Origin: Eledone cirrhosa
Taxonomy: Eukaryota
Direction of reading: 5' to 3'
Assembly (NCBI GenBank): GCA_964016885.1
Contig: OZ024740.1
Coordinates: 163,122,001 to 163,186,000 of the forward strand
DNA: 64,000 bases
Shown here: piece after piece, positions 1 to 58,006 of the stretch
Numbering within the stretch: position 1 is the first letter of the stretch
How the letters are laid out: each line of letters starts with the position of its first letter
Program-made: the position numbers and the translations under genes
The notes under the pieces: generated by a model
Databases searched by the model: none
Seen by the model: only the letters and a program-made list of their open reading frames with translations
What the model was told of the DNA's origin: nothing

Positions 1-3000
1 CGTAAATAGAGTGAACGACAGAATAATTAAAATAAGACTTGTCCTCAATAGAACTACGGTGACAGTAATATCTGCGTACGCACCCCAATCCGGACTGCCC
101 GGCACTATAAAAGACAGATTCTATGAGACACTGTTGCTAACTACCTCCCAAATATCTGACAGTGACTATATAATTATTGCAGGCGACCTAAATGGTCACG
201 TTGGACAACATTGTGACGGCTATGACGAAATCCATGGAGGCTATGGGTTTGGTACTAGAAATGAGGAAGGCTCCAGAATTCTGGAATACTGTGATGCAAA
301 TAACCTAACTATCTGTAACACTAACTTCAAAAAACGTGACAATCACCTGATTACCTATAGATCCGGGGAACACACAAGCCAGGTAGATTATATCCTTACC
401 AGAAGACGTGACAGAGTGTCTGTTGTAAACACTAAATCCCTCCCCCATGAAGAATGCACCTCCCAACATAGACTGATAATTAGCGACCTCATAGTCAGGA
501 CGAGACGCACCCGACAGCAGAAGAGGACTATCCTCAGGAGGAAAATATGGAAACTAAAGGACCCCACAGCCAGAAATAAATTTCAAAGCATATTACTTGA
601 TGCTTTCGACAGTAAGGAAGAGCATCTAGAATCGGACAATATAGAGGGACAGTGGAAATTCCTGAAAGCAAACCTGCTGTTGGCGACAGACGAAGTCTGT
701 GGCTGGAGCAGGCCTGTAGGCAGGAGGAGAGTAACATGGTGGTGGAACAATAGGGTGGAGGGGTCAATTAAGGCCAAAAAGCAGGCTTGGAAAGTATGGC
801 GGGATGGGGGAAGTAGAGTAGACTATCAAGTGGCCAGGAGGGAAGCTAGGAGAGAAGTGTACTTAGCAAGAAGGGAAGCTGAGGAAAGAAAGTTCAAGCA
901 TGTTCTACAACGCGATGACCAAAAACGTGAGGTGTTCAGGATTGCCAGGCAATGCGTCAAGGAAAACCGTGATATTGTCGGGGAGAAGTGTGTACTTAAC
1001 GATGATGGCATACTTGCCATCACCGACACTGATAAGAAGGTAGCTTGGAAGTGTCACTATGAAAGGCTACTAAATGAGGAGAATAAATGGGAGAAAGACA
1101 GTCTCCCCCTTATCGACCCGATAGAGGGACCAGCAGTGTTAGTCGAGGGGAGTATAATAAGTAAGGCAATCAAGGATATGAAGACTGGTAAGGCGGCTGG
1201 GCCTTCGGAAATAGTTGCTGAGATGCTGAAGGCATCTGGCACGGTGGGACACACCATGGTCACCCGCATAGTTAACCAAGTCGTACAGAATGGGGTTGTT
1301 CCGAAGGACTGGCATAGCAGCATCATCGTTAACTGTTATAAGGGTAAAGGAGACGCCCTAGATAGGAGTAACTATAGAGGCATTAAATTAATCGACCAGG
1401 TCATGAAGGTCACGGAAAAAGTAATAGCGCAACTAATCAGAGAGAGAATTGATCTAGATGAAATGCAGTTCGGGTTTGTGTCAGGCAAAAGCACCACAGA
1501 CGCTCTTTTCATAGTACGACAACTACAGGAGAAGCACCTAGCTAAAGGTAAACCCCTCTACTTAGCTTTTGTCGACCTGGAGAAAGCCTTCGACAGAGTC
1601 CCCCGCTCCATTATCTGGTGGGCTCTTAGAAAACTAGGCGTTGACGAATGGCTTGTGAGGGCTATACAAGCCATGTATAAAGAAACAGTCAGCAAGGTTA
1701 GAATTAACAACGAATATAGTGAAGAGTTTAGCGTAAAAGTTGGCGTCCATCAGGGCTCTGTTCTCAGCCCCCTACTATTTATTATTGCCCTTCAGGCTAT
1801 AACAGAGGAGTTCAAGACAGGCTGCCCATGGGAACTCCTATACGCAGACGACCTGACACTCATAGCGGAATCAATGGCCGAGCTAGAGAAGAAATTCCAA
1901 ACATGGAAGCACGGCCTAGAGTCAAAAGGACTTAAAATTAACCTGGCTAAGACCAAAGTTCTAGTTTGTAGGAAAGAAAACAAGGCGGCGGTCCCTTCTG
2001 GGAAATGGTCGTGCTCGGTATGTAGGAAAGGCGTAGGTAGAAACTCCATCTTATGTCCTAAATGCAAAGTATGGGTGCATAAAAGATGTAGTGGGATCAC
2101 AGGTAAGCTAACTAAGAACATAGACTTTACATGTGGCCGGTGTTCTGGTGCAATAAGTAGCAGCAAGTGCCCACAAAATACTAGCTCTTTCAATTGCGCA
2201 GAGGGTTCTATAGAAATAGTGGACAGCTTCCGTTACCTGGGCGATAAAATCAGCAGTGGGGGAGGGTGCTCTGAAAGCACTGTAGCTAGAGTCAGAACTG
2301 GTTGGAAAAAGTTCAGAGAGCTTATACCACTATTAGCTGCTAAAGGGTTCTCCCTAAAAATGAAAGGCAGGTTGTACGATGCCTGCATACGAACAGCAAT
2401 GTTGCATGGTAGTGAGACCTGGGCATTGTGTGCAGAGGATATACGCAGACTAGAGAGGAACGAAGCTTGCATGCTCCGCTGGATGTGTAACAGTAATATA
2501 CGTGAACGGCAAAGCATAAACGAACTAAGGAAAAAATTAGAGATAAGAGGGATCAGATGTTGTTTACTCGAGAGAAGGCTGCGTTGGTATGGACACGTGA
2601 TGCGCATGAAAGTCGATAGCTGTATTACAAAGTGCAGGGCAATAAAGATAGACGGTAGCCACGGAATAGGCAGACCTAGAAAAACATGGGATGAGCTGAT
2701 AAACTCCGACCTCACACACTTACACCTCTCCAAGACAATGTCACTGGACCGTGACCTTTGGCGGTACTCAGTAACAGAGAAGACCCGCCTTGCCAGTAGG
2801 CATCTCTAACAAAATACACCCCTCCCGCGCCACCCCCACCCCATCCACACCACCCCGTTCTATGTAAAGTCATGTTGGTGCCGCGCCATCCAGGCCGAAA
2901 CAAATGAGATCGTGTAGGTGTCACGACAAAAAAACACACAGTCCACGCTGTAATGTGGCCGTGTAGGCAACACGGTAAAAACCTCCCAGACCCACACTGT

Positions 3001-3162
3001 AAATGTGGTTGGTGTTAGGAAGGGCATCCAACTGTAGAAAACCTGCCAGACAGTCCTATGCGAGCAAGACAATCACTCTTGCCTCAAGTGGGACTACCCC
3101 CGTCCAAACCCATGCAAGCGTGGAACACGGACGTTAAACGTTGATGATGATGATGATGATGA
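1..3162 (+). mobile_element. RTE LINE copy 1, including ~340-bp 3' UTR and (GAT)n tail
   Basis: ORF followed by a 3' UTR ending ...ggacgttaaacgtt(gat)n that runs directly into (TA)n; the same UTR occurs at 3595, 32777 and 47800. Confidence 0.93.
11..2809 (+). CDS. RTE-clade non-LTR retrotransposon ORF (C-terminal part of APE endonuclease, reverse transcriptase, PHD-like Cys/His finger, C-terminal RTE motif); probably continues 5' of the window
   Basis: Uninterrupted 932-aa frame: SAYAPQ, IAGDLNGHVG, SQVDYIL, SQHRL (APE); NYRGIKL, QFGF, AFVDLEKAFDRV, GVHQGSVLSPLLF, LYADD, FRYLG (RT); GSETW, RRLRWYGHVMRM, GRPRKTW (RTE C-terminus). Confidence 0.95.
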   Translation: MNDRIIKIRLVLNRTTVTVISAYAPQSGLPGTIKDRFYETLLLTTSQISDSDYIIIAGDLNGHVGQHCDGYDEIHGGYGFGTRNEEGSRILEYCDANNLTICNTNFKKRDNHLITYRSGEHTSQVDYILTRRRDRVSVVNTKSLPHEECTSQHRLIISDLIVRTRRTRQQKRTILRRKIWKLKDPTARNKFQSILLDAFDSKEEHLESDNIEGQWKFLKANLLLATDEVCGWSRPVGRRRVTWWWNNRVEGSIKAKKQAWKVWRDGGSRVDYQVARREARREVYLARREAEERKFKHVLQRDDQKREVFRIARQCVKENRDIVGEKCVLNDDGILAITDTDKKVAWKCHYERLLNEENKWEKDSLPLIDPIEGPAVLVEGSIISKAIKDMKTGKAAGPSEIVAEMLKASGTVGHTMVTRIVNQVVQNGVVPKDWHSSIIVNCYKGKGDALDRSNYRGIKLIDQVMKVTEKVIAQLIRERIDLDEMQFGFVSGKSTTDALFIVRQLQEKHLAKGKPLYLAFVDLEKAFDRVPRSIIWWALRKLGVDEWLVRAIQAMYKETVSKVRINNEYSEEFSVKVGVHQGSVLSPLLFIIALQAITEEFKTGCPWELLYADDLTLIAESMAELEKKFQTWKHGLESKGLKINLAKTKVLVCRKENKAAVPSGKWSCSVCRKGVGRNSILCPKCKVWVHKRCSGITGKLTKNIDFTCGRCSGAISSSKCPQNTSSFNCAEGSIEIVDSFRYLGDKISSGGGCSESTVARVRTGWKKFRELIPLLAAKGFSLKMKGRLYDACIRTAMLHGSETWALCAEDIRRLERNEACMLRWMCNSNIRERQSINELRKKLEIRGIRCCLLERRLRWYGHVMRMKVDSCITKCRAIKIDGSHGIGRPRKTWDELINSDLTHLHLSKTMSLDRDLWRYSVTEKTRLASRHL

Positions 3163-3594
<432 letters not shown>

Positions 3595-4462
3595 CATCAT
3601 CATCAACGTTTAACGTCCGTGTTCCACGCTTGCATGGGTTTGGACGGGGGTTTTCCCCCTTGAGGCAAGAGTGATTGTCTTGCTCGCATAGGACTGTCTG
3701 GCAGGTTTTCTACAGTTGGATGCCCTTCCTAACACCAACCAAATTTACAGTGTGGGTCTGGGAGGTTTTTACCGTGTTGCCTACACGGCCACATTACAGC
3801 GTGGACTGTGTGTTTTTTTGTCGTGACACCTACACGATCTCATTTGTTTCGGCCTGGATGGTGTGGCACCAACATAACTTTACATAGAAGGGGGCGGTGT
3901 GGATGGGGTGTATTTTGTTAGAGATGCCTACTGACTGTAGTAGGTTTTACTTCGTATTTAGGTAAGGCGGGTCTTCTCTATTACTGAGTACCGCCAAAGG
4001 TCTCGGTCCAGTGACATTGTCTTGGTGAGGTGTAAGTGTGTTCGGTCGGAGTTTATCAGCTCGTCCCAGGTTTTTCTGGGTCTGCCTATTCCGTGGCTAC
4101 CGTCTATCTTTGTTATACAGCTATCGTCCTTCATGCGCATCACGTGACCATACCAACGTAGCCTTCTCTCTAGTAAACAACATCTGATCCCTCTTATTTC
4201 TAATTTTTTCCTTAGTTCGTTTATGCTTTGTCGTTCACGTATATTACTATTACACATCCAGCGGAGCATGCAAGCTTCGTTTTTCTCTAGTCTGTGTATA
4301 TCCTCTGCACACAATGCCCAGGTCTCACTGCCATGCAACATTGCTGTTCGTATGCAGGCATCGTACAACCTGCCTTTCATTTTTAGGGAGAACCCTTTAG
4401 CGGCTAATAGTGGTATAAGCTCTCTGAACTTTTTCCACCCAGTTCTGACTCTAGCTACTGTA
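3595..4462 (-). mobile_element. 5'-truncated RTE copy, tail-to-tail with copy 1
   Basis: Reverse-complement 3' UTR from 3595, then ORF end [15 protein letters not shown]...DRDLWRYSVIEKTRLT, near-identical to copy 1. Confidence 0.93.
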
Positions 4463-4887
4463 CGTATATATATATACATATATATATATACATATATTGT
4501 TATACTTTGGGAGGGTCATGTTGCCAATAAGAAACACACGCACCAGTTGCTTTCACTTCAATTTATTATATATTTATAAATTCATAAATTTACAAATCTA
4601 CAAACCTATAAATTATAAATTTCTGGTTGACCAACCAGAAATTTATAATTTATAGGTTTATAGGTTTGTAGATTTGTAAATTTATGAATTTATAAATATA
4701 TAATAAATTGAAGTGAAAGCAACTGGTGCGTGTGTTTCTTATTGGCAACATGATCCTCCCAAAGTATAACAATATATGTATATATATATATGTATATATA
4801 TATACGTACAGTAGCTAGAGTCAGAACTGGGTGGAAAAAGTTCAGAGAGCTTATACCACTATTAGCCGCTAAAGGGTTCTCCCTAAA
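4382..4887. repeat. ~500-bp near-perfect palindrome (RTE fragment + TA tract + pLTR-like stub, mirrored)
   Basis: Centre ttctggttg-ac-caaccagaa (4621-4640); the arms differ by one substitution and an 8-bp duplication in the right arm. Confidence 0.93.
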
Positions 4888-4946: not shown

Positions 4947-6035
<1,089 letters not shown>

Positions 6036-6186
6036 GTACGTTATTCCGGGTTGAATCGGAGGTAACCACAGTAAGTAAGGTACTCAATACATAGCAGAGT
6101 ATAACAGTTTTAATATAGATGAGATTCTACAGGACTAGAACTGTTTCATTAGTTCTAGTCCTGTAGAATCTCATCTATATTAAAAC

Positions 6187-6187: not shown

Positions 6188-8611
<2,424 letters not shown>

Positions 8612-9170
8612 ATAAAATATTAAACAAATAATGAATAAACAATTCCTTATATTAAACAAAAAAAGTTCATTATTTAACGATCGTTTCTAGGATATATATG
8701 TGTTAGAGTTGGCATGCATATTCAACAGATCTATGTACAAAATTATACAAAATTATACAAACTATCAAGATTAAATATACATACCAACACATATATACGC
8801 CGTCTTCAGAAATAATATACATATATATATATACATTATTTCTGAAGACGGCGTATATATGTGTTGGTATGTATATTTAATCTTGATAGTTTGTATAATT
8901 TTGTATAATTTTGTACATAGATCTGTTGAATATGCATGCCAACTCTAACACATATATATCCTAGAAACGATCGTTAAATAATGAACTTTTTTTGTTTAAT
9001 ATAAGGAATTGTTTATTCATTATTTGTTTAATATTTTATCTTGACTCTGTATACCGTTTATCTTTCACCGAAAGTGATTTTTCATTACATCTCTTCTTTC
9101 CATGATATCCGGAATACATTGAGTTCTTCATACGGATTGGACACTACCGTAAACTCTTGGTAGATTTATC
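8612..9170 (+). mobile_element. Penelope-like pLTR remnant: 205-bp perfect inverted repeat plus 130-bp unique tail, embedded in (TA)n
   Basis: Arms 8612-8816 and 8835-9039 are reverse complements with an 18-bp TA-like spacer; each arm holds an HHR core. Confidence 0.8.
8834..8983 (+). ncRNA. Type I hammerhead ribozyme-like motif with greatly extended stem II (mirror copy on the minus strand in 8668-8816)
   Basis: Stem I CATTATTT/AAATAATG (8 bp), core CTGAAGA (8842), ~115-nt stem II hairpin, GAAAC (8964), palindromic stem III ACGATCGT, predicted cleavage after GUU at 8975. Confidence 0.75.
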
Positions 9171-11258
<2,088 letters not shown>

Positions 11259-11881
11259 GGTGGCTGCCAACTCGTTTTCGAGTACGGCCACTACTTTACA
11301 TCCATGTAGGATAACCCCTACCGAAGCGCTGAACGAGTGTGACTTTTTAGTCCAGCCAGCGACTTGAAACCTCTGGTACAAACACTACACCTGTGACAAC
11401 CATTGACACATAGTGCTAGGCCCATGGTAGGACAACCATTGACACATAGTGCTGGGCCCATGTGAGGACAAGTGCAGAGAGATCTCCAGATATAAAGCAA
11501 TGCCTGTGCCGTGAAGCTTTTATAGTGAGCAAAGGCACTGCACAAAGCCAGTCCCACTCTCTTAACCAAGATGCTATTTACCAAAAAGAAGAACAAGTCA
11601 ACATCATTGGATACCATCAGGGTTGCAGGTGTTATATCAGAGTTTTCCTTCTCCTAGAATTCTGCCTTGACTAAGGCTAAAGGGGTCATCTCTCCCGGTG
11701 ATTTTGGATGGCCATTGACTCTTAAGAGCTCCTTTGCCCTTTGACAGGTTTTGTTTTTAGTCCTGCAGGATGTCCAAAGTCACCCTCCTCACCAAGAAAC
11801 CTTGGTGGGGTTGCCAGTTTAGTCGCCAACGACCCGACCATGAGACAGGTTGTACTGGGATACATGTTACCAGTAGCACCA
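11259..11881 (-). mobile_element. Short internally deleted RTE-group element (5' UTR-like part joined to ORF C-terminus with a C2H2-like finger and 3' UTR)
   Basis: Minus frame ...WRSLC...[22 protein letters not shown] resembles RTE C-terminal zinc fingers; ctaggagaaggaaaactctga resembles RTE 5' UTR motifs (from memory); flanked on both sides by (TA)n. Confidence 0.55.
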
Positions 11882-45009: not shown

Positions 45010-45420
45010 AAATTCACCACTGCTATTACTGTAGTTAATATTTTTATGAATACTGTTGAGTTTGTAAATATTATCAATACTGTTGATATTGCTGTAGAAT
45101 CTTTATTACAAATACTGACTGACAATGCAAATATCTTTAGCATCACAGCCACCATTAAATATATTTAGCACCACAACTATCACTGATAATATCCCTACCA
45201 TTGTTAATATCCTTAGTACCACAGTTAGTACTTACAATATCCTTAACACCACAGCAATCACTATAAACATCTCTAGCACAGTATCCACTATTACAAATAT
45301 ATTTGACACCACAGTTACCACTGTTAATATATTTAGCACTACAGTTGCCACTGTTAAAATCATTCTAAGTACCACAGCTATCACTGTTAATATCCTTGGT
45401 TCTACAGCTATCAGAGTAAG
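45010..45420. repeat. Degenerate 30-bp minisatellite (left part)
   Basis: Unit ~aatatccttagcaccacagctatcactgtt; produces the 10-aa NILSTTAITV-like periodicity in ORF 45125. Confidence 0.8.
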
Positions 45421-45433
45421 AAATGTTTTATCC

Positions 45434-48208
45434 TATATCCTTACCAGAAGACGTGACAGAGTGTCTGTTGTAAACACTAAATCCCTCCCCCATGAAGAAT
45501 GCACCTCCCAACATAGACTGATAATTAGCCACCTCATAGTCAGGACGAGATGTACTCGACAGCAGAAGGCAACTATCCCCAGGAGAAAAATATGGAAGCT
45601 AAAGGACCCCACAGCCAGAAATAAATTTAAAAGCATATTACTTGATGCTTTCGACAGTAAGGAAGAGCATTTAGAGTCGTACAATATAGAGGAACAGTGG
45701 GAATTCCTGAAAGCAAACCTGTTGATGGCGGCAGACGAAGTCTGTGGCTGGAGCAGGCCTATAGGCAGGAGGAGAGTAACATGGTGGTGGAACAGTAAGG
45801 TGGAGGAGTCAATTAAGGCCAAAAAGCAGGCTTGGAAAGTATGGCGGGATGGGGGAAGTAGAGAAGACTATCAAGTGGCCAGGAGGGAAGCTAGGAGACA
45901 AGTGTACTTCGCAAGAAGGGAAGCAGAGGAAAGAAAGTTCAAGCATGTTCTACAACGCGAGGGCCAAAAACGTGAGGTGTTCAGGATTGCTAGGCAATGT
46001 GTCAAGGAAAACTGTGATATTGTCGGGGAGAAGTGTGTCCTTAATGATGATGGTGTACTTGCCATCACTGACGCTGATAAGAAGGTATCTTGGAAGTGTC
46101 ACTACGAAAGGCTACTAAATGAGGAGAATAAATGGGAGAAAGACAGTCTCCCCCACATCGACCCAATAGAGGGACCAGCAGTGTTAGTCGAAGGTAGTAT
46201 AATAAGGCAATCAAAGATATGAAGGCGGCTGGGCCTTCGGAAATAGTTGCTGAAATGCTGAAAGCTTCTGGAACGGTGGGACACACCATGGTCACCCGGA
46301 TAGTGAACCAAGTCATACAGAATGGGGTTGTTCCGAAGGACTGGCGTAACAACATCATCATTAACTGCTACAAGGGTAAAGGAGATGCCCTATATAGGAG
46401 TAACTATAGAGGCATTAAATTAATCGACTAGGTCATGAAGGTCACAGAAAAAGTAATAGCGCAACTAATCAGAGAGAGAATTGATCTAGATGAAATGCAG
46501 TTCGGGTTTGTGTCAGGTAAAAGTACCTTTTTATTGTACGACAACTACAGGAGAAGTACCTAGCTAAAAGTAAACCACTATACTTAGCTTTTGTTGACTT
46601 GGAGAAAGCCTTCGACAGAGTCCCTGTTCCATTATCTGGTGGGCTCTTAGAAAACTAGGTGTTGATGAATGGCTTGTGAGAGCTATACAAGCCATGTATA
46701 AAGAAACAGTCAGCAAGGTTAGAATTAACAACGAATATAGTGAAGAGTTTAGCGTAAAAGTTGGTGTTCATCAGGGCTCCGTTCTTAGCCCCCTACTATT
46801 TATTATTGCCCTTCAGGCTATAACAGTGGAGTTCAAGACCGGCTGCCCATGGGAACTCCTATACGCAGCTGAATCAATGGCCGAACTAGAGAAGAAATTC
46901 CAAACATGGAAGCATGGCCTAGAAGCAAAAGGCCTTAAAATTAAGCTGTCTAAGACTAAAGTTCTAGTTTGTAGGAAGGAAAATAGGGCGCCGGTCCCAT
47001 CCGGAAAATGGCCATGCTCAGTGTGTAGGAAAGGAGTAGGTAGAAACTTCATTTTATGTCCCAAATGCAAAGTATGGGTGCATAAAAGATGTAGTGGGAT
47101 CACAGATAAGCTAACTAAGAACATAGATTTTATATGTGGCCGGTGCTCTTGTGCAATAAGTAGCAGCAAGTGCCCACAGAATACTAGCTCATTCCATTGC
47201 ACAGATGGTTCTATAGAAATAGTGGACAGCTTCCGTTACCTGGGTGACAAAATCAGCAGTGGTGGAGGGTGCTCTGAAAGTACAGTAGCTACAGTCAGAA
47301 CTGGATGGAAAAAGTTCAGAGAGCTTATACCACTATTAGCCGCTAAAGGGTTCTCCCTAAAAATGAAAGGCAGGCTGTATGATGCCTGCATACGAACAGC
47401 AATGTTGCATGGCAGTGAGACCTGGGCATTGTGTGCAGAGGATATACGCAGACTGGAGAGGAACGAAGCTTGCATACTCCGCTGGATGTGTAATAGTAAT
47501 ATACGTGAACAGCAAAGCATAAACGAACTAAGGGAAAAATTAGAAATAAGAGGGATCAGATGTTTACTCGAGAGAAGACTACGTTGGTATGGTCACGTGA
47601 TGCGCATGAAAGACGACAGCTGTATAAAAAAGTGCAGGGCAATAAAAATAGACGGTAGCCACGGAGTAGGCAGACCCAGAAAAACCTGGGACAACTTGAT
47701 AAATTCCGACCTCACACACTTACACCTCTCCAAGACAATGTCACTAGACCGAGATCTTTGGCGCTACACAGTAATAGAGAAGACCTGCCTTACCTAAGTA
47801 CAAAGTGAAACCTACTACAGTCAGTAGGCACCTCCAACAAAATACACCCCCGTCCCACTACCCCCACCCCATCCACACCACCCCTTTCAATGTAAAGTTA
47901 TGTTGGTACCACAACATCCAGCCCGAAACAAATGAGGTTGTGTAGGTGTAACGACAAAAAAACACACAGTCCACGCTGTAATGTGGCGCTGTAGGTAACA
48001 CGGTAAAAACCTCCCAGTTCCACACTATAAATGTGGTTGGTGTTAGGAAGGGTATCCAACCGTAGAAAACCCGCCAGGCACTCCTCTGCAAGCAATGACA
48101 ACCACTCTTGCCTCAAGTGGGAAAACTCCCATCCAAACCCATGCAAGCATGGAATATGGACGTTAAACGATGATGATGATGATGATGATTTAAACGATGA
48201 TGATGATT
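45434..48208 (+). mobile_element. RTE LINE copy 2, 5'-truncated and inactivated
   Basis: Colinear with copy 1 from YILTRRRD onward; frameshifts near 46205 and 46525, stop at 46429-46431, YADD reduced to YA; 3' UTR and duplicated (GAT)n tail. Confidence 0.95.
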
Positions 48209-48339: not shown

Positions 48340-49025
48340 GTAACCGATAAATATCCTTAGCATCAGAGCTATGACTGCACATATTCTTAGCACTATGGCT
48401 AGCACTGTAAATATATTTAGCAACATATCTATCATTGTAAATATCCTTAGCACTACAGCTAGTACTGTAAAATATATTTAGCACTACAGCTAGCACTGTA
48501 AAATATCCTTAGCACTACAGCTATCACTGTAAAATATATTTCGCACTACAGCTATCACTGTAAAATATATTTAGCACTACAGCTAGCACTGTAAAATATC
48601 CTTAGCACTACAGCTATCACTGTAAAATATATTTAGCAACACAGCTACCACTGGTAAACATACTTAGCAACACAGCTTCCATTGAAAAGATATACATAGC
48701 ATCACATCTAGCATTGCAAATATCCCTAGCAACACAGCTGCCACTGTAAATATCCTTAGCAACACACCTACCATTGTAAATATATTTAGCACCACAGCTA
48801 GCATTGTAAATATCCCTAGCAACACAGCTGCTACTATAAATATCCTTAGAAACACATCTAGCATTGTAAATATCTTTAGTACCACAGCTAGCATTGTAAA
48901 TATATTTAGCACTACATCCACCATTTAAAAATATATTTAGCATCACAGATTGCACTGTAAATATATTTAGCATCACAGCTAGTATTTTAAATATCTCTAG
49001 TACTACAGCCCCAACAGTAAAATAT
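48340..49025. repeat. 30-31-bp minisatellite (right part), about 22 units
   Basis: Unit tagcactacagctagcactgtaaaatatcct/tt. Confidence 0.9.
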
Positions 49026-49644
49026 ACTAAGGTCAACTGCTGCTTGTAAGACTTGGAGGGTACCTCTCCAAGGTGGTAGATCTGAGTAAGGTTGTCTTTT
49101 TTTCTTATGGAAGTTCAGCAGTTGCCCATCCATGCAACTCACTCTTCTATATGTCACCAATGTTATCAAAGGGAAAAACAAGGGCTTATACAGCTTTGCA
49201 CGAGTGTTGTCACAAGTGTCACTATCAGAACACGAAGAGCTGATACCACAAGACACCCCATCTGATGTTCTAACAATTCAGCCAATCCACTGCTCTAGAC
49301 TAGTATTTTATTTACTGACACCTCAAAAAGCTGAAAAACAAAATTGGCCTTGGTGAGATTTGAAATCAGAGCACAGATCTAGAACTAATACTGCAAAGCA
49401 TTCTATGTGATGTTCTAAAAACTTTGTTAATTCTGCTAACTGCCACTGCTGAAAATCAATTCAAGAATATTGCTTCAACCAATATCATCTTTATCATTAC
49501 CACAGACATTGCATATCCTTCTAACATTACATTTTCTAATGCAAATCTTCCACATATCGTATTTGTTGCCTTTACTACCTCTTTCAGTTGAAGAGAACAC
49601 CTTTAATCTAAATAAAACAGAAAATGTTATCTCTCTCTCTTTCT

Positions 49645-54534: not shown

Positions 54535-57500
54535 TCTATCTTCTATCTATATATATAAAAGCGAGGATGTGTGTGTCTGTGTACAACTTTGGATACCTAA
54601 GGCTTTTACAATTACCAACCGAATTTGACCAAATTTTCTATGCACGTTGCTAAGATGGTCACATCACAAAAAATGTTCAAATCGACCCACGTTGAGCAAT
54701 AAAAAATCGATAGCAAAATTATTTTTTCTAAAGTGCATGATGTAAGGGAGATAACAAACTTTATTGACAATTCTTATAAAGAGAGTGAGAGAGGGGAGAT
54801 ATGGAGACCTTCATTTTCACTTTCAAAACAACAATCATCGTCGGACGAAATTTCAGAAATATAAACATCAGATTCATTTGAAGATAAATCACTAATATTA
54901 TCGTTTGTTTCTTGTTTATTCTGAATCTCGTTGGGCGTAAAACCTTCAAAGTCGTTATCGCTACTTTCATAAGCCATGTATGTTAATACAAAACAAAAAT
55001 TTGTTGCGCTTTCAAAGTTAAAAAAAAACACTTGTTGTTTTAACTTGTTTCACTATATTAAGTGTTAATTTTCTCGGTAAGGGACTAATCTCGCAACAGT
55101 CTCAAATTTACGAGATTTTGATGATGGTTTTAGATGGTTTTAGAATAATCCTTATGGGACTTTCCATTCAAACCATTGGGACCTACAACTTTTACATTTT
55201 TAAAGTAATTTCGTCCACATTTGAGGCAGGCATCATCTATGCTTCCAGCTGTATTCGTACACATCAAACTTTTTTGACAATGAAGGAACATACTGAACAG
55301 GATGTAGTTATTCAAAGGATTTTTTAATTTTACTGTAACACTTCTAAATCTATAAAATAGATTTGCAAGTACATTAATAAAGGCTCTGATGCTGCTACGT
55401 TTGGATTACTTCGGGAAAACAGCCGAGATGAAGTGGCCCAGTACCAAACTGGAAGATACATTAGCTCCAATGAAGCGTTCTGGCGGATTTTCGGATTTTT
55501 TATGCATCAACGGCATCCTGTTGTTCAAAAACTCCAAGTGCACCTGGAGAACGGTCAGAGAGTATATTTTACGAATGCATCAGCTGCTCAGTTAGCACAA
55601 GAATACAGGATTCTACCCGTACCGCTTTCTTTAAACTATGTGAAGAAGATCCATTTGCTAAAACCTTACTATATCCACAAGTCCCATCTTACTATACCTG
55701 GGACAAAAATACATGGAAGTGAAGAAAAACAGGACAGTGTGTCGAAGGTTATCCAGGCATCAAGTTCAACGAGTGCTTGGGCAGAGTTTATACTGTGCCC
55801 CCAAACCAACACGAGTGCTTCCATCTTCGTATGCTACTACACGAGGTCAGAGGACGCAACGATGGCGGAAGTTGCTCTTTCACATTCACCTGCCAGCCTA
55901 AGAAATTTATTTGCGGTACTTTTGCACTTGTGCAACTTATCTGATCCTCTGTCCTTGTGGATGAACTAACAGACGACTACAGACACCAAGCACAATTGCT
56001 GCTTCCATAAATAGAGGTCGGCTTTAGTAATGAATTATACAACAGAGCTCTCATTGATATTGAGGACAAGTTATCTCTGATTGGAGGAAAGGTTTTACGT
56101 GACTACGGTTTACCAGAAACTCATCGCACAGACTCAAACAAACTTCCTACAGATATCATACAGGAGACTTCTTATGACATCCATGATCTCAGCATCTACG
56201 TCACAGATAATGAGCCAAAACTTCTAGCTGATCAGCGACTGGTTTATACCTCCATTACTGAATCGATATTTCAAAGAAGAGGTGGCATATTTTTCGTCGA
56301 TGCTCCTGGGGGTGACAGGAAAAACTTTCGTTACTAAACTTCTTGCAAAGGTTAGACAGAATAAGGACATAGCAATAGCAGTTGCGTCCTCTGGAATCGC
56401 AGCAACTTTGCTCCCTGGTGGAAGGACGGCACATTCAGTTTTTAAATTGCCCCTTGATTTGGCAAAATTGGAAACTCCTACTTGTCATATCACCAAAGAC
56501 TCCGAAAGGGCTCATCTGCTGCGAAGGTGTCACCTTATTGTTTGAGATGAGTGCACAATGGCGCACAAAGGTGTTCTTGAGGCACTAGACAGGTCTTTGC
56601 AATACATACGGGATTGCAGTGATGTTATGGGGGGGGGGGGGGTCACCCTTCTGCTATCAGGAGACTTCAGACAGACTCTTCCTATAATACCGAAAGGAAC
56701 AAGAGCAGATGCGGTACATGCTTAAGTCTTCACCATTGTGGCGACAAGTGACATCATTAAGACTAACTACCAACATGCATGCAAGGTTGCATGGGGACCC
56801 TCTGTCATCAACATTTTCTGGAGACATTCTTACAATAGGAGATGGTAACCTACCTCCGGATACAGATGGGCACATAGCAATTGATCAGATCTGCAATGTA
56901 GTTGAAACTGTCGATGATCTCAAGGCGAGTGTATTCCCGAACTTGCGTGATAACTATACGAATCTTGATTGGCTTGGCGAAAGAGCCATTCTTGCACCCA
57001 CAAATATCACGGTTAGCTGTATTAACGATCAGCTTCTTCAGCTTCTTCTTGGATGTCCACGGATATATATATCTATTGATAATGTATGTGATCCACAGGA
57101 TGCGGTCAATTACCTCCTAATACATTGGTTCTGAAAGAGGGAACGCCAGTTATTTTGCTGAGAAATATCACTCCTCCAAAACTATGCAATGGTATACGCC
57201 TTGTTTGTTAAAAAACTTAGTATTGACGCGACCATTCTATCCGGATGTGGAAAAGGCGAGGATGTGATAATAACAAAATTTAGCCTGATTACATCAGGCT
57301 TCTCCTTACGCCGAACCCAATTTCCCCTTTATGTTGCCTTTGCAATGTCCATAAACAAGTCGCAAGGTCAAACTCTGTCCGTCGCTGGAATTCACTTAGA
57401 TGAACCTTGCTTTTTGTACGGACAATTCTACGTTGCCTGCTCACGAGTTGGCAGTAGAGATAATCTCTTTGCGTTTGTTCCGAAAATAAAAACAAAGAAT

Positions 57501-58006
57501 ATCATCTATCCTGAAGTGCTTTAGTGTTAACAAAAACACTTATTACAGCTCTGCTTTGACTTCACCTTACTCATTACAAAACATACCAATGAATGTGTCA
57601 TGCAGGATATTTTTGATTATAAGTTCAAAATTTAACCATACACAGCAAAGGATGCTCTCAAAGAATACATTTTCTCTTATTCTACTCTCATTGTTTTTTT
57701 GTTTGTATACAACTCTGCTTTCATTACAACTTTTTGTACTTTAGCAAAACTGCCTGTTTTTTTTACAGATTTGCAACGTGCATTGTCTTTAATCATTTGT
57801 ATAACTACATCCTGTTCAGTGTTTTCCTTCATTATCAGCATAGTTTTATGTGTACAAAGATTGCACTAAATATTCGTTTGCATTATTTATTGAAGACTTC
57901 TGGTTATTTTGACAGGTTGGGGACAAATAATTTTCTTCTTTTACTTCCTAGCTGTATATTCTTAGCATAATTTCAAACCCCGGGCAACACCGGGTAAATC
58001 TGCTAG
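54535..58006 (+). mobile_element. Helitron, internally deleted and decayed
   Basis: A|TCTATC... 5' end; 3' hairpin cccgggcaacaccggg then CTAG|T; RepHel remnants inside. Confidence 0.92.
55370..57524 (+). pseudogene. Helitron RepHel remnant (post-Rep region and PIF1-family helicase), multiply frameshifted
   Basis: RYISSNEAFWRIFGF...LQVHLENGQRVYF; FVDAPG(G)TGKTF; AVASSGIAATLLPGGRTAHSVFKLP; ERAILAPTN; QFPLYVAFAMSINKSQGQTL; GQFYVACSRV. Confidence 0.92.

Follow-up and report, generated by a model that had tools for sequence, protein, structure and literature searches.

A type I hammerhead motif with a 115-nt stem II in a head-to-head pLTR insertion of a Hydra-clade Penelope-like element of Eledone cirrhosa

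Two arms of an inverted repeat, at positions 8612-8816 and 8835-9039, were found in the window (the whole 64,000-nt stretch of Eledone cirrhosa DNA that was analysed) and are identical over 205 bp each, so that the perfect repeat claimed in a preliminary description of this DNA is exact. The arms lie head to head and are separated by 18 nt of TA/CA filler (8817-8834, unstranded). The forward arm is the pLTR of a Hydra-clade Penelope-like element (PLE) and spans 8835-9172 of the + strand, from the start of stem I of a hammerhead motif to the end of a 'tail'; it is 100% identical over 342 nt with dispersed copies and precedes the ORF in full units. The preliminary description had the extent of the repeat right but ended the forward arm at 9039, whereas this arm runs about 132 nt further. 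The additional segment, the tail (9040-9172, + strand), is present on one arm only and has a small hairpin at its end, as judged from pair counts and folding, and from this end we infer a second RT start site. The right end of the forward arm is ambiguous between 9170 and 9176 against the TA repeat. The inverted arm (8612-8816, - strand) is an exact copy of 8835-9039 which carries a second, mirrored hammerhead (C3 at 8809) and lacks the tail. The target flanks on the left (7282-8611) and on the right (9173-11261) are both (TA/CA)n microsatellite, with no strand assigned.

Other features were noticed in the window. A unique island among the microsatellites at 6035-6185 contains an internal inverted repeat and is possibly the end of another PLE family. 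A disrupted LINE that retains RVT_1 and a stretch resembling a PHD, and which we take to be RTE-like, lies at 45119-47797 (+ strand) with fragments at 1792-4579 (- strand). Three frames at 55361-57524 (+ strand) resemble a Helitron Rep/PIF1 helicase by eye and gave no Pfam match, and a degenerate 30-nt tandem repeat at 48617-49114 (- strand) contains an open frame of 10-residue repeats.

All parts of the hammerhead named in the preliminary description were located on the + strand. Stem I is formed by its 5' strand CAUUAUUU (8834-8841) and its 3' strand AAAUAAUG (8976-8983), both supported by the pairing count. The core CUGAAGA (8842-8848) is separated by 115 nt from the second half of the core (8964-8975), where GAAA (8964-8967) leads into the palindromic stem III ACGAUCGU (8967-8974) and H17 is U8975. 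The sequence features of a type I hammerhead were all observed, namely CUGANGA, GAAA, A15.1-U16.1 and a residue other than G at H17, and cleavage is predicted to occur after 8975. The intervening stem II (8849-8963) is a rod where the mismatched base C.A (10.1-11.1), already pointed out in the preliminary description, is followed by two pairs (G-U and G-C), a C.C mismatch, a basal helix, a middle helix and an apical stem whose internal loop is conserved. Subfamily A, to which the window belongs, has GUU as its cut triplet, and subfamilies B and C have GUA; the C.A mismatch together with GUU may weaken the ribozyme of the window's subfamily.

The hammerhead region is more stable than expected (z -5.5, with 0/200 shuffles as stable), in line with the fold that had been proposed. 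Stem II by itself folds at -40.5 kcal/mol (z -6.5) and contains six G-U pairs, whereas its antisense reaches only -18.4. The rod is 115 nt long, and two of the helices first listed for it share the same TT (8864-8865). The reading of the deviations as G-U pairs on the + strand holds for this copy, where the antisense is weaker, but is not general: the strand asymmetry was observed in subfamily A and in one C copy and not in several other families or in B, whose stems fold about equally on either strand. The Rfam hammerhead models gave no match at the gathering threshold in the window, as anticipated for standard descriptors, and this is expected because an insert of about 100 nt interrupts the core.

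Residues 8834-9175 were used as a query against the same genome (3.0 Gb) and 40 of the 286 candidates were scored. All 40 scored places are about 100% identical to the query and 13 of them, including the window's own, match at 342/342 positions, which bears out the suggestion of a very recent event. Among the scored candidates, 11 inverted partial matches were found and every one of them ends at query position 206. Tandem copies lie 6.7-6.9 kb apart and enclose an ORF of 807 aa whose ATG is 485 nt downstream of the hammerhead core. In these full units the ORF, which encodes both RT and a GIY-YIG endonuclease in a single frame (YRDD and IVY..YIG motifs), directly follows the pLTR sequence of the window, which supports the claim that the motif is a PLE hammerhead. 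The ORF matches that were scored are 99-100% identical in 56/56 cases and are free of stops in 54/56. A Pfam search of the ORF returned no significant family, and the RT and GIY-YIG assignment is consequently based on the motifs and on 116 homologues. Further PLE characters were also present: tandem or partial tandem pLTRs, an inverted 5' copy and a tail at one end.

The protein motifs place the element in the Hydra clade, which is described in section 11 of PMC8557442 by an RWK-type motif, DKT, a CxCX5C linker, CxxC/CxH, a (TA)n target and a length generally <3 kb. Here RWR occurs at about residue 38 and DKT at residue 115, and the aligned proteins have DK[TS] in 30/30 and RW[KR] in 25/30 cases. 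The linker reads CNCRNKANC, CxxC is CRLC, CxH is CNH, CCHH is absent from the ORF protein as judged by eye, and insertion is into (TA)n, all as expected of this clade. The tandem period of 6.7-6.9 kb departs from the <3 kb length, which is descriptive and not strict. A Neptune/Nematis PLE was rejected, since its DKG, CX2-5CxxC linker and CCHH were not found, and so was a Naiad/Chlamys PLE, which requires an N-terminal endonuclease; the endonuclease motifs here are C-terminal, at residues 666-800. As assigned by its motifs, the element is a young Hydra-clade PLE. We also noticed that the element carries a TG/TA-rich, microsatellite-like 3' region of ~3.8 kb (L033 1900-5100), by which it spreads microsatellites.

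The inverted repeat had been taken for a special duplication. Instead, it is an ordinary PLE insertion product with a stereotyped arm length, as PLEs typically have a tail on one side and an inverted copy truncated at its 5' end in the accounts of PMC8557442 and PMC3846280. Among 30 head-to-head pairs from the collected loci, one arm is short and the other tailed in 28, the hammerheads of both arms are identical in 18 and the junction fillers differ from pair to pair. Short arms of 12 copies are 205-215 nt long. By analogy, such short and tailed arms fit two internal RT start sites, as described for the Anolis PLE in PMC11167929.

The split core with a stem II of 97-117 nt has 10,954 exact matches in the genome and the reversed pattern has 0, so the arrangement is not due to chance. 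Three subfamilies were recognized, in which the proteins of A, B and C are about 88-92%, 75-78% and 65-67% identical to A over the stretches found, and stem II is mostly 99-115 nt long. For covariation we aligned 40 hand-picked sequences from 85 distinct ones and counted 17 hand-named pairs, leaving out the middle and apical helices, because RNAalifold, run on a MAFFT alignment, placed the core opposite GAAA and, owing to register shifts, did not recover the middle helix. The named pairs are paired in 96.6% of cases compared with 32-51% for slid controls. Five pairs changed on both sides, and covariation across subfamilies is seen in stem I and at the base of stem II. The covariation anticipated among genomic copies is therefore visible in the pairing but not in the number of covarying pairs, which does not exceed the shuffle control (111/500): the changes go back to a small number of inherited events, and common ancestry inflates the cell counts of this test. 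Stem III never varies and is by itself uninformative here.

Constraint was assessed in 100 copies chosen by the tail motif and not by the ribozyme, of which 69 span the ribozyme. Variants shared by at least three copies were found in 0/17 columns of the core and palindrome against 92/260 elsewhere (Fisher p 0.001, with columns that are not independent), while private mutations occur at ~1% everywhere. CUGANGA and GAAA are thus conserved in homologous copies, as the preliminary description would have it. Between subfamilies, the core with stems I and III is 91-97% identical, stem II 62-74% and the flanks 52-68%, a comparison that is partly biased because the initial discovery of B and C relied on the 3' half of the core. 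At the level of sequence, the split hammerhead is real and its long stem II is under selection.

Stem II also contains a donor-like GTATGT and an acceptor-like TTTT(G)TACATAG (window 8867-8920), which are kept in A, B and C at a distance of 42-54 nt. A single spliced-junction pattern for subfamilies A and B had 0 copies in the genome and a comparison of four contig sets revealed no splice-like joint. The absence of spliced copies neither favours nor opposes an intron because PLE copies keep introns.

The long stem II is a genome-wide trait of these sequences. The motif GAAACAATTGTH occurs 56,824 times in the genome compared with 1,363 times in the control. We scanned 60 evenly spaced 10-kb stretches (600 kb) for type I motifs with a palindromic stem III and obtained 62 hammerheads, compared with 0 on reversed DNA and 0-2 per block shuffle. 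Stem II is 11-36 nt long in 48 of them, 48-70 nt in six and 88-115 nt in eight; 14/62 have at least 45 nt, where any single long-stem-II match may be due to chance. For a second family, whose stem II of 93-96 nt is predicted to be branched, there are 1,885 matches and 0 in the control. Its members often form direct pairs 0.7-1 kb apart and resemble non-autonomous retrozymes (G000:C1, for example 13844289/13845278 and 60206499/60207508; L426, L427). In multiple copies of several hammerhead families, CCGANGA (U4 to C) was observed to replace CUGANGA (L232, L241, L244, L254, L255, L260). Metagenome loci with related proteins have a hammerhead in 14/77 cases, all with a stem II of 10-25 nt, and many of these contigs end near the ORF.

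Stem II could be a selected functional domain, for instance one bound by the element protein or a host factor, which would act as a ribozyme switch or direct the RNA to reverse transcription. Hardly any change between A, B and C is seen in the apical GAU/AUC and UGUA/UACA stems or their internal loop, in contrast to the basal helix, the base of two pairs followed by C.C recurs in families with a stem II of 26-35 nt, and protein-assisted cleavage is known for one PLE from PMC11167929. However, the stem II lengths form a continuum of 11-117 nt with sequences that differ between families, and 51/115 stem II columns vary between subfamilies; we hold a selected domain to be a tentative idea that leans towards doubt. 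The preliminary description had instead proposed a pre-miRNA-sized hairpin. The size and stability of the rod would suit a pre-miRNA or siRNA precursor, and cleavage would free a hairpin RNA of 141 nt. Nothing beyond size supports this role, as the arm sequences are only 62-74% identical between subfamilies and the stem of another long-stem-II family is predicted to be branched, which makes a small-RNA precursor highly improbable. We prefer to view stem II as a rod whose length is tolerated.

The ends of the copies indicate where the RNA begins. Among the 100 copies picked by tail, 41 extend upstream past the core by 47 nt or more, whereas 29 have their end at stem I and 30 downstream of it; two end within 6 nt of the cut and 0/100 exactly on it. 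In two of the 29 copies an upstream pLTR lies beyond an insertion and these were dropped, whereas 27/29 have no upstream pLTR in the 600-1200 nt of flank examined, so that the first bases of stem I are the starting point of 27/100. The template is therefore likely to be uncut RNA that starts with the ribozyme, and we infer A8835 as the transcription start. All three subfamilies retain an ATTGG box 65-80 nt upstream, an AATAAA and a TCATT start; the first and last of these are presumably NF-Y and Inr elements. An internal promoter is described for D. virilis Penelope in PMC2377424. The ORF-bearing loci count against a simple start-site model, since 0/30 start at stem I (22 run on upstream and eight are cut elsewhere, several in the same arrays); 0/30 begin exactly at the cut. 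The long copies may arise instead from read-through of arrays or from circles, following the circle model of PMC4209133; no scar would be expected from circles. Cap-derived G was not in excess at the junctions (9/55).

Alternatively, the cluster of 5' ends at stem I might reflect a polyadenylation-type cleavage site, with AATAAA 7-9 nt upstream of CA and a U/GU-rich stretch downstream, or an endonuclease cut at ATT. In addition to the conserved AATAAA and the ORF-bearing copies that do not start at stem I, this would agree with the preference of the Anolis PLE endonuclease for ATT (PMC11167929). Moreover, a SINE, tRNA-like by eye, has entered the ATTATTT at which stem I starts, and duplicated its target, in seven loci of B and C (L099, L107, L108, L111, L123, L141, L408), and this hot spot means that ATTATTT may be a nuclease target rather than an RNA end. 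A template jump to the SINE at the RNA 5' end was rejected, because the upstream pLTR is present and the SINEs are insertions with a target duplication. The missing upstream pLTR in 27/29 copies and the ATTGG box at promoter distance argue against a processing or nuclease site, which we consider possible but not probable, and a transcription start at stem I is retained below.

Building on the family membership and clade motifs observed above, together with the copy numbers, the covariation, the constraint on the core and the stereotyped ends, we consider it likely that the window holds a 5'-inverted short pLTR insertion of a young Hydra-clade PLE. The hammerhead in it would be a conserved motif that likely cleaves itself as a dimer or with a protein, and in which growth of stem II has produced a rod of ~100-115 nt. 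Transcription would start at the first base of stem I, making the ribozyme the 5' leader of the element RNA. The monomer is predicted to be mostly in an inactive fold, in which UUUCUG pairs with UAGAAA, at -42.0 kcal/mol compared with -38.6 for the hammerhead. A further -10.0 comes from the palindrome duplex, and the motif is accordingly predicted to be active as a dimer or when helped by a protein; alternative arm-swapped dimer folds are lower still (-96.6), and all these energies are indicative only. The element RT would copy the uncut leader from two internal starts, at about +205 and +337, and the resulting short and tailed arms would be joined head to head in the (TA)n target. Cleavage would follow the pairing of two motifs by their 8-nt palindromes, for instance in RNA read through tandem units or together with the element protein, and its purpose may be to produce templates that are circular or of unit length. 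A stem II of such length would be tolerated because minimal hammerheads lack contacts between loop I and loop II, but its base would have to stay paired. The copy in the window is probably inert, as it has no upstream pLTR and its read-through RNA is predicted to fold arm on arm into a 205-bp duplex hiding both motifs.

A motif that is catalytically dead or nearly so in subfamily A, with its core kept as a promoter or RNP signal or by recent descent, would also account for the favoured inactive monomer, for the pairing probability of stem I near 0 in the 341-nt leader and for the lack of copies or ORF loci that begin at the cut, and metazoan PLE hammerheads cleave poorly in vitro according to PMC4209133. 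The constraint, however, obeys catalytic rules: H17 varies only between U and A while N7 is A, G, U or C across families, and stem III is palindromic in all families accepted by the scan, which required a palindrome. A dead motif is therefore quite unlikely, and a dimer- or protein-dependent ribozyme is preferred. Protein dependence has a precedent in the Anolis PLE, whose hammerhead needs its protein and whose uncut RNA is the main substrate (PMC11167929). An extended scheme, which we think unlikely, is that the Hydra-type elements of this genome repeatedly turned stem II into a domain of 50-117 nt and that the 5' ribozyme is switched by protein: the uncut leader would be the RT template, whereas the cut in dimers would shed a capped hairpin RNA and give scarless circular or unit-length templates.

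These findings make the natural size range of hammerhead stem II several times wider, and do so in motifs on which selection is visible; they also suggest that descriptor searches undercount ribozymes, with ~1 motif per 10 kb here and nearly a quarter (14/62) in the long class. The insert ends indicate that uncut RNA starting with the ribozyme is likely copied, whereas no trace of cut RNA is left in them. This young family, in which intact ORFs number in the dozens and dated insertions in the thousands, makes the role of PLE hammerheads testable.

The element class is already known and the inverted repeat is ordinary, but the ribozyme variant is unusual and apparently undescribed. In the openly accessible literature searched, no PLE hammerhead with a stem II of ~100 nt is reported; prior notice in subscription papers or Repbase is possible. 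The element resembles the Hydra clade PLEs described in PMC8557442 (Hydra-1_Obim, Penelope-n_HM; Craig et al. 2021) in its C-terminal GIY-YIG, RW[KR], DKT, CxCX5C and CxxC/CxH motifs, its (TA)n target, its near-end type I hammerhead, its inverted 5'-truncated copies and the mismatch at the base of stem II. For the latter, File S2 of that paper lists U.U in many Hydra rows and C.A in the plant PLE-X1_cBra, and PMC3088659 provides a further precedent. It differs in its unit of 6.7-6.9 kb with a long microsatellite-rich 3' region, compared with <3 kb, in its very high copy number and in its stem II of 99-115 nt, compared with about 10-25 nt in the Hydra rows of File S2. The half cores of Naiads are 35-50 nt apart in the same source.

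With the minimal or dimeric PLE hammerheads (Cervera and de la Pena 2014, PMC4209133; PMC6765202) the motif shares type I topology, a location in pLTRs, a short palindromic stem III and tandem units. The preliminary description held that PLE hammerheads normally have a very short stem II, but the very short stem in PMC6765202 is stem III, and helix II has 7-8 bp in PMC4209133. These two papers give 6-8 bp for helix II overall and PMC13725137 uses 'long helix II' for 6-8 bp, compared with 30-43 predicted pairs here. Poseidon PAc of Anolis, as presented in PMC11167929 (Frangieh et al. 2024), likewise has two RT starts that define a tail, an AT-rich target and an uncut RNA template; its tail is 30-40 compared with ~132 nt here, and its hammerhead overlaps the ATG, whereas the present one lies 485 nt upstream of it and has a long stem II. 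The nearest known split ribozyme is the discontinuous mammalian Clec2 hammerhead, on the descriptions in PMC6155905 and PMC6765202, where the two core halves are also divided by a long insertion. The Clec2 ribozyme is of type III with 150-1500 nt in helix I and resides in a host 3' UTR, whereas the motif described here is of type I, holds a paired rod in stem II and is carried by a mobile element.
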